A DNA stretch of 64,000 nt from a virus. Taxonomy: Duplodnaviria; Caudoviricetes. The translations under genes and the position numbers were made by a program. Each line of letters begins with the position of its first letter. The first letter of the stretch is position 1. A model generated the notes under the pieces. That model saw only the letters and a program-made list of their open reading frames with translations. It was not told the origin of the DNA and did not search any database. The stretch is from the IMG/VR virus record IMGVR_UViG_3300027749_000034. One strand, written 5' to 3'. Shown here piece by piece: positions 13,352 to 39,183 of the stretch.

Positions 13352-15178
13352 ATGGCAGACATTCCAGTTATACCCGGCGTTTCAGTTACCCCAATGGGGA
13401 TACTCAATAGACCAATCAAAGACATCATTTGTGCTATCCTTTTTGGTGGCATCAATAACATGCTCAAAGGAAATTTACTTTGTGTAAATTTAGACTTGGA
13501 AAAATTGTTAGATGAACCAATTGTTGCAGACATAAAAGCCGAGTTGACAGATCTAAAGAATGAACTCAAGGCCATGGAAGAAGCGTCTGGTATCAAAGAT
13601 GTGCTTGGCCGAGTCAATCAGGGCATCGCTGAAGTTCAAAATCTACTGGCACTGGATGGCTTATGTAAAATTCCACTGAAGTGTCCTCCGATACCCGACA
13701 TCCTGAACATGACCATTGACGCAGAGTTTGCCACTGCCAATGCAATTTTGGATGATATTGGTAGATTAGAAAAACCAAAATTATGTATCAATGGTGCTGG
13801 TGGTCTCAATACTGGTTCATACAATCCCAGTAGCATCTTGGGTAGAATACAAAGCAACATTACCAGACTGGGAACTATTCCTGGTCATGAATTAGACATA
13901 TTAAAAAGACAATTGACACGAGTGACTGCTGGACTAAAGGCCAGTCTCAATAGACAGTTGTTTCCAGATTTCAGACACAAGACAGATTTGACAACAGGCA
14001 GGCCATATGCTAAAGGTGGTGCTGGTGTAATACTGGCCAGTGCCGCTGAACAGACCAAACTGAAGGCCAAGATTGCCGCTGACTCAGCATCGCCTGCAGG
14101 CCTACTGGCATGGCAACAGGTAGCAAACATGCCTGGAGCATCTGCCGCGGATATTCAAGCATCATATCCGCCAGGTGACGCCAGTCTAAAAGATGCAGTC
14201 AACATAGCACAGACTCTGGTAGGTGGAATGAAAAAGACTGCCAGTTATCCTTCCACAGCCAATGGAATTATAAATGCAAACATGTGGCCCGGTGTGTTGG
14301 GTCCAGACATATATGCTATGGCAGTACAGGCAATGAGTCCACAGGACCCGCTATTTGTACAACAAGATCCACTGTATGATTATTGCGGTAAGTTCATTGG
14401 ATACAATGAAACAGTTATAACCGGCGACTCTGCATACAAAGGTGGCGACCCAAAGAAAGATGCTGTATTGAATCCACACAAAACAAACTTTGAATTCAAT
14501 TGGATCGCAGATAGACAATGTTGGGCAGTCACTGGCGTACAAAGCGAGCAAGTGGTAAATGGAAGAAAGGACACTTATCTAGATGCAAATCCAGAAATTG
14601 AATTGCATCGAGGGTATAGTCATATTCTAAGTGTGCCAAGTGCTGACATCAGTGGATTCGTTATGAGTGGCGACTATCCAACAGCAACTAGTACGGCTCC
14701 AGAATTTTTTATATGTCGAGTTGGAAACGATCTAAGGCCACTGATTGCCAATGGCGAAATTGTCAAGTTCAACATGGGACTAAGCAGACTTGAGACATCA
14801 GAAGTATTGGACAATGCCAATGGTTGGCTACCAAGTGAAACAGAACATGCGGGTATTGATGGTCCAGAAGGATACAATCGTAGATTAGAAAACCCAATGG
14901 GTACCACATTGTATTTTTCAGTCGAACAACGACAATACTCGGGTACTGTTCCTCCGCTGTACCCAAGCAAGGACATTTGGTGGTATAATCCAACCACTCT
15001 TATAACACAACAGTGGATACCAGATGGCGAGGCCAGTGGTCAATGGGTTGTAGTATCTGATCAGGATAGAAACAATCATTGGTATGGATCAAGTCCTTTG
15101 CAGAGCGATATAAGTGCAAACTATCTGGCCTACAGTAATCGAAATGGTTCAGTTTTTGGCCTATTAAAATTAATTTGA
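13352..15178 (+). CDS. hypothetical (putative virion/baseplate) protein
   Basis: 608-aa ORF next to PAAR/M15; TAAGTA at 13339. Confidence 0.7.
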   Translation: MADIPVIPGVSVTPMGILNRPIKDIICAILFGGINNMLKGNLLCVNLDLEKLLDEPIVADIKAELTDLKNELKAMEEASGIKDVLGRVNQGIAEVQNLLALDGLCKIPLKCPPIPDILNMTIDAEFATANAILDDIGRLEKPKLCINGAGGLNTGSYNPSSILGRIQSNITRLGTIPGHELDILKRQLTRVTAGLKASLNRQLFPDFRHKTDLTTGRPYAKGGAGVILASAAEQTKLKAKIAADSASPAGLLAWQQVANMPGASAADIQASYPPGDASLKDAVNIAQTLVGGMKKTASYPSTANGIINANMWPGVLGPDIYAMAVQAMSPQDPLFVQQDPLYDYCGKFIGYNETVITGDSAYKGGDPKKDAVLNPHKTNFEFNWIADRQCWAVTGVQSEQVVNGRKDTYLDANPEIELHRGYSHILSVPSADISGFVMSGDYPTATSTAPEFFICRVGNDLRPLIANGEIVKFNMGLSRLETSEVLDNANGWLPSETEHAGIDGPEGYNRRLENPMGTTLYFSVEQRQYSGTVPPLYPSKDIWWYNPTTLITQQWIPDGEASGQWVVVSDQDRNNHWYGSSPLQSDISANYLAYSNRNGSVFGLLKLI

Positions 15179-15203
15179 CAAGCCGATCAAATAAGTATAT
15201 ACT
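15175..15203 (+). promoter_or_regulatory. sigma70-type promoter of tmRNA
   Basis: TTGACA-17-TATACT. Confidence 0.85.
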
Positions 15204-15209
15204 GTAAGT

Positions 15210-15500
15210 TATTGCTGTATGAAGCAAAGAGAAAAGTGTTCTGGACGGGGGTGCGAATCCCCCCAGGTCCACCATAAGCACATAGTTGTCCTAGATGAAA
15301 GAAACCTCTTAGGGCTCTAGTGGGGATTGTGTGCTTTTGATGGGCCTGACCTAGATTCGACAGGGCAACAAGTAACAGAGTGGACAGCACGACAGCGATA
15401 GTCGTAAAAACTAAACAAAAGTAACCGCAAACGACTCACAGTTCGCATTAGCGGCCTAACAGCCACTTAGGGTAAGACATACCTCGTAACAGAAACTCAG
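15210..15500 (+). ncRNA. ssrA: tmRNA, circularly permuted two-piece form
   Basis: T-arm plus CAGGTCC-ACCA (ends 15274) precedes the 5' end GGGCCTG (15342) with G3.U; tag ORF ANDSQFALAA*; ends are approximate. Confidence 0.93.
15427..15459 (+). other. tmRNA proteolysis tag reading frame (ANDSQFALAA*)
   Basis: gca aac gac tca cag ttc gca tta gcg gcc taa. Confidence 0.9.
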
Positions 15501-15528
15501 AAAAGGTTGCTTCGGCAACCTTTTTCTT
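15501..15528 (+). terminator. intrinsic terminator
   Basis: AAAAGGTTGC-TTCG-GCAACCTTTTT. Confidence 0.9.
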
Positions 15529-15576
15529 TATAAGTATTTTTATAATACGAACATTATCACACTAAAGAATATATCA

Positions 15577-26098: not shown

Positions 26099-26272
26099 TG
26101 TTGTAGAAATACAACAAAAATAAAGGCAGATAGTTGTTGACAGGAATGAGTAGATAGCATATACTAGTTGAATACTGTAGCAATACAGCAGAAACAGTTT
26201 GAAAAGTGTTGTAGAAATACAACAAAAGAAAGTTAGAAAACGGTTGACATTACGGCATTGTCCGTATATAAT
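26099..26272 (+). promoter_or_regulatory. tandem operator plus sigma70 promoters (rrn P1/P2-like)
   Basis: Operators 26099-116 and 26207-224; TTGACA-17-TATACT (26137-65) and TTGACA-17-TATAAT (26244-72). Confidence 0.85.
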
Positions 26273-26280
26273 AACCAAAC

Positions 26281-26315
26281 ACTACAGCGAAAGTTGTAGT
26301 GATTGTTCTTTAAAA
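26281..26315 (+). promoter_or_regulatory. boxB-like hairpin plus boxA antitermination site
   Basis: ACTACAGC-GAAA-GTTGTAGT then TGTTCTTTAAAA. Confidence 0.7.
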
Positions 26316-27353: not shown

Positions 27354-27429
27354 CGCGGGGTACGTCAGTGGTCAGACTGCTAGGCTCATAACCTAGAAGA
27401 CGGAGGTTCGAATCCTTCCCCCGCAACCA
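27354..27429 (+). tRNA. tRNA-fMet(CAT), initiator-like
   Basis: CGCGGGG 5' end with C1xA72 mismatch, loop CT CAT AA. Confidence 0.9.
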
Positions 27430-27430
27430 G

Positions 27431-27624
27431 ACGTTCCGAGTGTCTTCGGATAGTGTGACCCACACGATGAGAAGTAGTGTGACAACTACGGGTGGTAGTC
27501 TTTGAACCGAAAGGCCGCTGGCAATGCGATAACGGAACCTGTCGGGAAGTGGGTGGAAGCCGTGTGTGATGGTGTTGGGGGTTCCTGGCGCTTGATACGG
27601 TACAATTACCACCGGGGTTCGCAG
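27431..27624 (+). ncRNA. unknown pseudoknotted structured RNA
   Basis: GTTCCG/CGGAAC (27433/27533) crosses GGTGGTA/TACCACC (27491/27607); GNRA hairpins. Confidence 0.5.
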
Positions 27625-27696
27625 AGCATATTAAAACACACTCTAACCGCAAGGTGACAAGTGAGCTCATGTTCATGAAGTGTGTTTCAATATGTT
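27625..27696 (+). ncRNA. long-stem hairpin cassette
   Basis: 18-bp stem AGCATATTAAAACACACT/AGTGTGTTTCAATATGTT with one A/C mismatch. Confidence 0.55.
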
Positions 27697-27700
27697 TTTC

Positions 27701-27776
27701 GGGGGTGTAGCTCATTTGGGAGAGCGCCTGCTTTGCAAGCAGGATGTAGCAAGTTCGATCCTTGTCACCTCCACCA
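27701..27776 (+). tRNA. tRNA-Ala(TGC)
   Basis: GGGGGTG acceptor with G3.U70, loop TT TGC AA. Confidence 0.96.
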
Positions 27777-39098: not shown

Positions 39099-39183
39099 GG
39101 AGAAGAAGCATCAATGGTGATGCAGTGGACTGTAAATCCGCCGCCTTCGGGCACGACTGGTTCGATCCCAGTATTCTCCACCA
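39099..39183 (+). tRNA. tRNA-Tyr(GTA)
   Basis: Type II cloverleaf, loop CT GTA AA. Confidence 0.95.

Follow-up and report, generated by a model that had tools for sequence, protein, structure and literature searches.

The interval from 27430 to 27632 on the plus strand of the window (by which we mean the whole 64,000-nucleotide stretch that was analysed, taken from the Caudoviricetes record IMGVR_UViG_3300027749_000034 of IMG/VR) is a real gene of a roughly 200-base, intricately folded non-coding RNA. This RNA is a member of a large family from uncultured large phages that is absent from both Rfam 15 and the GenBank phages, and well over a hundred uncultured giant phages carry it, mostly within tRNA gene clusters. 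In the window the gene is present in a single copy, since a covariance model (R1) built from the first 41 sequences of the family finds only one match, at 27430-27632, with 229.8 bits. The limits of the gene, 27430 and ~27632, are the points at which homology to relatives begins and ends. The minimum free energy of the stretch is -96.2 kcal/mol (z = -3.0), and none of 200 shuffled sequences was as stable. The gene and its immediate surroundings are as follows:

27354-27429, plus strand: tRNA-Met(CAT), found by ARAGORN and by the Rfam tRNA model (61.4 bits)
27430-27632, plus strand: the structured RNA gene, ~200 nt, delimited by homology (R1, 229.8 bits)
27636-27700, plus strand: AU-rich hairpin with a U run, outside the RNA family, from folding prediction
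27701-27776, plus strand: tRNA-Ala(UGC), the next tRNA in the array, found by ARAGORN and Rfam

The RNA gene begins at the base right after the encoded CCA of tRNA-Met (27429 is followed by 27430). This tRNA carries an initiator-like C1/A72 mismatch, and Rfam flags its first acceptor pair as non-standard. The gap between tRNA-Met and tRNA-Ala comprises 271 nt and is GC-rich (~0.53-0.55 versus ~0.35-0.45 for coding DNA close by), and it lacks a convincing open reading frame. The AU-rich hairpin upstream of tRNA-Ala ends in GUUUUUC, and its 5' arm overlaps the conserved GAGCA tail of the RNA. It is absent even from relatives that are 97% identical over the RNA: homology to one such group (L001) stops near 27640, where a different 212-nt spacer is found. 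The source of the window is a large uncultured phage, the window carrying 27 tRNA genes, a permuted tmRNA and ribonucleotide reductase. The tmRNA gene, in two pieces, lies at 15161-15550; its top model is the betaproteobacterial tmRNA (136.5 bits) and its tag peptide is ANDSQFALAA. Rfam also calls a tRNA at 39099-39180 (35.3 bits), which is not in the ARAGORN list and is 90% identical to the annotated tRNA-Tyr of Limnohabitans phage DC31. This is probably a 28th tRNA gene, and the similarity may also provide a hint at the host group.

Rfam 15 (4227 models, among them those for tRNA-like RNAs, RNase P, tmRNA, T-box, known ribozymes, GOLLD and ROOL) was searched with three nested stretches at gathering and permissive thresholds. 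At gathering thresholds, 27430-27640 matched none of the 4227 families, and the permissive search (E <= 10, 213-nt query) returned only chance matches to vertebrate lncRNAs at 11-14 bits, in keeping with the preliminary description of this locus, which had recognised no known family. Blastn of the RNA against 50,697 GenBank phage records gave no match at E <= 10, and megablast of 20 kb against GenBank phages matched tRNAs only. A survey of IMG/VR has reported 10,006 candidate structured RNAs (PMC10690425), and the present motif may be among them. We retrieved homologues from IMG/VR and from JGI metagenome contigs with short exact words of the RNA, and found family members in at least 266 loci. 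Because two word scans, one with a word from the 5' half and the other with the core word of a second subfamily, each gave at least 120 matches, the family is much larger than the first 41 sequences. For comparative analysis, 100 distinct members were aligned by R1 (alignment A4). Five pattern matches (L030, L065, L080, L085 and L091) were judged to be chance. The same applies to the three matches that a scan of GTDB genomes with the core word produced, all in high-GC MAGs of Acidobacteria and Planctomycetia: R1 gave the best of them (L092) 7.4 bits, and neither of the other two reached the reporting level of E = 10.

As predicted from covariation among these relatives, the fold consists of a 5' module, in which three hairpins are tied together by a kissing loop between H1 and H3 and which also includes a GGGU strand and H5, and a long irregular 3' arm. 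Altogether there are five short hairpins, followed by the arm that runs from P6 through P7 and an internal loop into H6. The predicted elements are the following:

27435-27450, plus strand: hairpin H1 (27435-39 with 27446-50); all five pairs compensated, 99.6% of cells paired
27442-27483, plus strand: kissing loop, H1 loop 27442-45 (GUCU) with H3 loop 27480-83 (UGAC), from covariation
27453-27465, plus strand: hairpin H2 (27453-56 with 27462-65); all four pairs compensated, 99.5% paired
27466-27473, plus strand: single-stranded junction GAUGAGAA, 98-100% identity in members found without constraining that segment
27474-27489, plus strand: hairpin H3 (27474-78 with 27485-89); all five pairs compensated
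27490-27496, plus strand: GGGUGGU, putative hub of tertiary pairing, complementary to ACCC of the H2 loop and ACC of the H4 loop
27498-27515, plus strand: hairpin H4 (27498-503 with 27510-15); four pairs compensated
27516-27532, plus strand: H5, a 3-bp stem (27516-18 with 27526-28) with the 7-nt loop UGGCAAU, from covariation
27535-27620, plus strand: helix P6, GGAACC(U) 27535-40 with (G)GGUUC 27615-20; all six pairs compensated, 99.7% paired
27543-27614, plus strand: split helix P7, CG 27543-44 and GUGG 27549-52 with CCACCG 27609-14, from covariation
27553-27608, plus strand: internal loop, GUGGAA 27553-58 opposite ACAAUUA 27602-08, from conservation
27559-27601, plus strand: arm H6, stem 27559-64 with 27596-601; three stem pairs compensated
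27621-27628, plus strand: 3' tail GCAGAGCA; A, G, C and A at 27625-28 are 97-99% conserved

On A4, which was aligned to a model already holding most of the fold, 97.3% of cells are paired, compared with 80.8% in shuffles, and both partners change in 37 of the 52 pairs; in 500 shuffles the fold was not equalled on any measure. When the 3' partners are shifted by 1-3 columns, pairing falls to 37-49%. MAFFT alignments had shown these helices beforehand, and both the revised register of P7 and the kissing loop are absent from R1. In addition, the RNA has many invariant unpaired nucleotides, a trait of ornate RNAs, ribozymes and riboswitches; conservation at unpaired positions amounts to 96-100%, also in members that were gathered through another part of the molecule.

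Within the 5' module, the H2 loop GACCC (27457-61) is conserved, and so is AACC (27505-08) in the H4 loop, where the ACC is 98-99% conserved. The junction has variants in some clades, namely GAAGGAGA, GAUAAGA and GAUAGGA. Two of the small hairpins in this part of the RNA had been noticed before. GTAGT/ACTAC is borne out as H3, whereas CC-GAAA-GG gives way to H4, covariation favouring GUCUUU/AAAGGC around that site instead. The short stem of H5 changes from C-G to U-A in 14 of 100 members, and a lone tertiary pair is seen between U27525 of its loop and A27532 (U-A in 94, C-G in 5 and U-G in one). The complement of the H5 loop, ATTGCCA, has 22 sites on the plus strand of the window versus ~4 expected; the sites lie within long open reading frames on that strand and have no common flanks, and the excess is most likely a matter of codon usage (the Ile-Ala codons ATT GCC) and not a motif. 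Some members (L038, L045, L056, L099, L173, L187-L189 and L193) have one or two extra hairpins of 30-70 nt between GGGUGGU and H4, which is a clade-specific expansion. In three others (L101, L163 and L181) the standard 5' module is joined to a different, larger 3' domain (R1 scores of 109-132 bits); perhaps the 5' module is the ancestral or a separable unit.

The predicted pseudoknotting of the RNA has two components, the kissing of the H1 and H3 loops and the contacts that other loops make with GGGU 27490-93. For the kissing loop, the pair 27442-27483 is G-C in 63 members of A4, A-U in 31, G-U in four and another combination in two, and in other clades the H1 and H3 loops are complementary through different words (ACG:CGU and GGUUA:UGACU). 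One outlier (L226) breaks this rule, both its loops reading GUAGCAA, which is not self-complementary. The contacts to GGGU were checked in 123 distinct 5' domains, gathered by central words that leave those positions free. In this set, the change of U27493 to C is paired with a change of A27506 to G in the H4 loop in six out of six cases, with four G-U intermediates and no C-A combination. The same six members also have an additional G in the H2 loop, and in a further member (L086) G27490 is changed to C together with C27461 to G in the H2 loop. Consequently, both the H2 and the H4 loops appear, from this covariation, to touch GGGU 27490-93. The geometry could be that of a triple or of two short helices stacked on each other; the loops might also pair in alternative states or with another copy of the RNA.

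The last of these options leads to the idea that the RNA forms an RNA-only homo-oligomer like ROOL or GOLLD, with the kissing loop and the loop-GGGU contacts made between copies. Covariation cannot separate intramolecular from intermolecular pairs, and the H2 and H4 loops compete for a single GGGU strand, a competition that would be easier to satisfy between copies. Moreover, ROOL and GOLLD are themselves phage RNAs often found near tRNA islands, and their kissing loops, found by covariation, proved to be intermolecular (PMC12286853). However, the size of the RNA is only ~200 nt, and the raiA RNA of 205 nt was monomeric in the same study (PMC12286853). Furthermore, the Rfam models of GOLLD and ROOL remain unmatched, and H1 and H3 are near enough to kiss within one molecule. 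We therefore consider a homo-oligomer improbable.

In the 3' arm, P6 is the long-range helix that closes the arm, and its pair 27536-27619 occurs as U-A in 52 members, A-U in 30, C-G in nine and G-C in four. P7 contains a 4-nt bulge (27545-48). Its pair 27550-27611 covaries perfectly (C-G 78, U-A 16, A-U 6), and 27543-27614 is C-G in 93, U-A in three and U-G in three. An earlier candidate partner for TACCACC, GGUGG at 27552-56, was dropped when the larger alignment pointed to CG 27543-44 plus GUGG 27549-52. In the internal loop most positions are 96-99% conserved in members gathered via the 5' domain only, the exceptions being R at 27558 and Y at 27603; this conservation marks the loop as a candidate functional core. 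The base of H6 coincides with the previously noticed hairpin CCGTGT/ATACGG, which thus holds up. Above it, a k-turn signature (a 3-nt bulge at 27565-67 and GA 27568-69 opposite GA 27594-95) is present in 73 of 100 members, and the distal hairpin varies in length. In some clades the k-turn region is replaced by an ordinary helix or a GCAA-capped stub, and the H6 arm has shrunk to such a stub in L024, L019, L103 and L152. A GNRA tetraloop at the tip of H6 was rejected as a family feature, a candidate being found in just 39 of 100 members. No pairing partner was found for the tail GCAGAGCA, and a search within the window for complements of the junction, the tail and the internal loop as possible targets found none.

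The fold differs from the one drawn in the preliminary description, where two long-range helices, GTTCCG/CGGAAC (27433-38/27533-38) and GGTGGTA/TACCACC (27491-97/27607-13), crossed each other. All the words quoted there, including GTAGT/ACTAC and CCGTGT/ATACGG, are present at these positions. A lack of conservation of the crossing helices in homologues had been named there as one refuting outcome, and the relatives reject both of them. The first helix has 68.9% of cells paired on A4, no better than shuffles, and at two positions pairing fails in 64 and 73 of the 100 sequences. Its GTTCCG strand belongs to the local hairpin H1 (five of five pairs compensated) and its CGGAAC strand to P6, with GGUUC 27615-20 (six of six). 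The second helix varies on one side only and shows no compensation: 27611 is changed in 84 of 100 members while 27493 is constant in 99, and 27611 tracks 27550 instead. In addition, A27497 is changed to U in 18 members, which would give U-U with 27607. The notion of a pseudoknotted RNA thus survives through the kissing loop and the GGGU contacts, although not through either of the crossing helices. Similarly, the proposed compact, ribozyme-like or ornate core stands as far as it is compact, conserved, pseudoknotted and rich in invariant unpaired nucleotides, but loses the helices that were to build it.

Nonetheless, the energy model predicts the GGTGGTA/TACCACC helix and it is pairable in 94 of 100 members, so it may form as a transient alternative. 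If this is the case, the RNA might be a cis-acting switch (a riboswitch or tRNA sensor) controlling read-through to downstream tRNAs or genes, in which UACCNCC would re-pair between its P7 partner and GGUGGUA. The alternative is a perfect 7-bp helix, the AU-rich hairpin with its U run lies downstream in the window, with a stem that overlaps the conserved tail, and GGGUGG is similar to the T-box word. On the other hand, the alternative helix lacks compensatory change, and there is no conserved expression platform, the downstream hairpin being missing in the relatives that are 97% identical over the RNA. In L019, L023 and L017 the next tRNA follows the RNA by only 5-31 nt, and the Rfam T-box model is silent even at E = 10. 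More generally, a cis-regulatory leader is disfavoured because the tRNA-flanked cases leave it no room or target. In our judgement a cis-acting switch is very unlikely.

The genomic context of the family is dominated by tRNA genes. In 56 of 100 distinct members, no more than 5 nt separate the start of the RNA from the 3' end of a tRNA, and nine tRNA identities precede it in these abutting cases, Tyr, Ser and Asp being the commonest. The position directly after tRNA-fMet, emphasised in the preliminary description, is thus true of this phage but not of the family, whose members follow nine different tRNAs or none. A same-strand tRNA is found within 3 kb in 90 of 100 members, ~10% being without one, and in 24 of 100 the RNA ends within 15 nt of the next tRNA. 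In some relatives the RNA lies squeezed between two tRNA genes, with 1-3 nt separating it from the preceding gene and 5-31 nt from the following one; in L023 the next tRNA starts 5 nt past the conserved GAGCA. Non-abutting members are often preceded by AAAG or a hairpin, and so may be transcribed from a promoter of their own or processed in another way. In two of the members with no abutting tRNA (L103 and L116), a short hairpin followed by UACCA lies just upstream of the RNA. This arrangement, which might serve as a processing signal, resembles a minihelix of the tRNA type that ends in CCA.

The coincidence of the 5' edge of the RNA with a tRNA 3' end raises the question of whether the RNA might be a ribozyme, either cleaving itself at its 5' edge and thereby freeing the CCA end of the upstream tRNA or acting on tRNAs or other RNAs. 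With its many invariant unpaired nucleotides, several tertiary contacts and the k-turn signature, it does look like natural ribozymes. Yet it matches no known ribozyme family, the helix at the 5' end that would resemble an HDV-type P1 is rejected, and many members do not adjoin a tRNA. A ribozyme is, in our view, a distinctly unlikely explanation.

No conserved neighbouring protein gene was found in the flanks of the relatives. The flank genes are unrelated and include those for a radical SAM protein, a DUF2201 metallopeptidase, an SH3 protein and a D-Ala-D-Ala carboxypeptidase; the RNA is therefore a free-standing gene. Furthermore, R1 finds no copy in the relatives that share the upstream omega-like gene (L005-L010), among them a 98%-complete contig of 354 kb, which means that the RNA is dispensable for some phages. 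A close relative without the RNA, together with near-identical cores that lie in unrelated flanks behind nine different tRNAs or none, is what one would expect of a selfish or drifting mobile RNA gene that brings the phage no benefit and is kept by spread between phages. High identity across unrelated flanks could indeed partly result from recent horizontal spread rather than functional constraint. However, no transposase, endonuclease or reverse transcriptase travels along with the RNA, and dozens of compensatory changes indicate long-term selection on the fold. A purely selfish gene thus seems extremely improbable.

Our preferred reading is that the gene yields a trans-acting binding or scaffold RNA that is cut from tRNA precursors; we hold it tentatively, with a confidence somewhat short of even. 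The near-invariant unpaired nucleotides, the tertiary contacts and the k-turn signature argue for a precisely shaped RNA that either binds a partner or is active itself. On the evidence of the gene layout, excision from tRNA precursors and action in trans are probable. Two sigma-70 consensus promoters lie on the tRNA strand at 26137-65 and 26244-72, and no promoter-like site was found between these promoters and the RNA. Their sequences, within 26137-26272, are TTGACA-17-TATACT and a perfect TTGACA-17-TATAAT; a terminator-like hairpin (26280-26301) lies directly after them. The RNA would be transcribed together with the tRNA array from these promoters and would be released by the host nucleases that mature tRNAs. 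Where a tRNA directly follows the RNA, as in several relatives, the cut would be made by RNase P. Once released, the RNA would act in trans as a pre-folded molecule, with the invariant unpaired GUGGAA/ACAAUUA, the junction GAUGAGAA and the tail GCAGAGCA forming a putative pocket for one conserved partner. Such a partner might be a protein, the end of a tRNA or a small ligand linked to translation in the infected cell.

It is also conceivable, if somewhat unlikely, that the family constitutes a new natural class of functional RNA with an activity of its own, through which giant lake phages manage their own tRNA pool. Such an activity might be that of a ribozyme at tRNA ends, of a tRNA- or ligand-sensing switch in which GGGUGGU is passed among the H2 loop, the H4 loop and UACCNCC, or of a subunit of an RNA-only assembly. 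In any case, intricately folded orphan RNAs are rare, and those that have been studied gave new biology, as with ribozymes, with riboswitches and with the cages that ROOL and GOLLD build from RNA alone. The present family is abundant in uncultured large phages, and its size of ~200 nt suits probing, crystallography and cryo-EM. Dozens of compensatory changes support its secondary structure, candidate tertiary contacts have been defined, and the near-invariant internal loop offers itself for mutation. Moreover, its place in phage tRNA arrays ties the RNA to the question of why large phages carry near-complete tRNA sets and how these are managed.

Among known systems, GOLLD and ROOL are likewise phage-encoded RNAs, often beside tRNA genes, with elaborate covariation-supported folds that include kissing loops, GOLLD having first been seen downstream of a Met-tRNA (PMC12286853). 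Both form homo-oligomers held together by intermolecular kissing loops and A-minor contacts. They are, however, three to four times larger, and their Rfam models do not match the RNA described here. The raiA motif RNA, for which the same study constructed its own profile, is a compact, multiply knotted orphan RNA of 205 nt (PMC12286853), and in this respect similar; unlike our RNA it is bacterial, and the two were compared by description only. By eye, likenesses to P4 of RNase P, SRP, domain V of group II introns, the cobalamin riboswitch and the hammerhead were also considered and rejected, as they have no Rfam support and the helices do not correspond. An HDV-like nested double pseudoknot was rejected as well: its proposed P1 is 68.9% paired with no excess covariation, and its P2 is one-sided, with a partner that covaries elsewhere. 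T-box leaders have the word GGGUGG(N)A, which occurs twice in the RNA, and are likewise associated with tRNA; they also carry a k-turn at the foot of a long arm, where the RNA has a candidate k-turn. In contrast to them, it lacks a Stem I, a specifier, a terminator/antiterminator and a regulated gene downstream, the Rfam T-box model is unmatched, and the GGGU of the first GGGUGG(N)A copy is predicted to pair inside the RNA.

The remaining comparison is with rnaC and rnaD of phage T4, the species 1 and species 2 stable RNAs. With 139 and 119 nt they are shorter than the ~200-nt RNA with several tertiary contacts described here, and T4 belongs to a different phage group. R1, run with filters off on T4 69000-75000, gave 5.6 bits at best and nothing credible on either RNA. 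What they do have in common with our RNA is their setting: both are small and stable, and their genes immediately follow a tRNA gene of a phage tRNA cluster, on the same strand as the tRNAs. In T4, the spacers that set rnaC and rnaD off from tRNA-Arg and from each other measure 1 and 6 nt, a layout that implies release by tRNA-processing enzymes.
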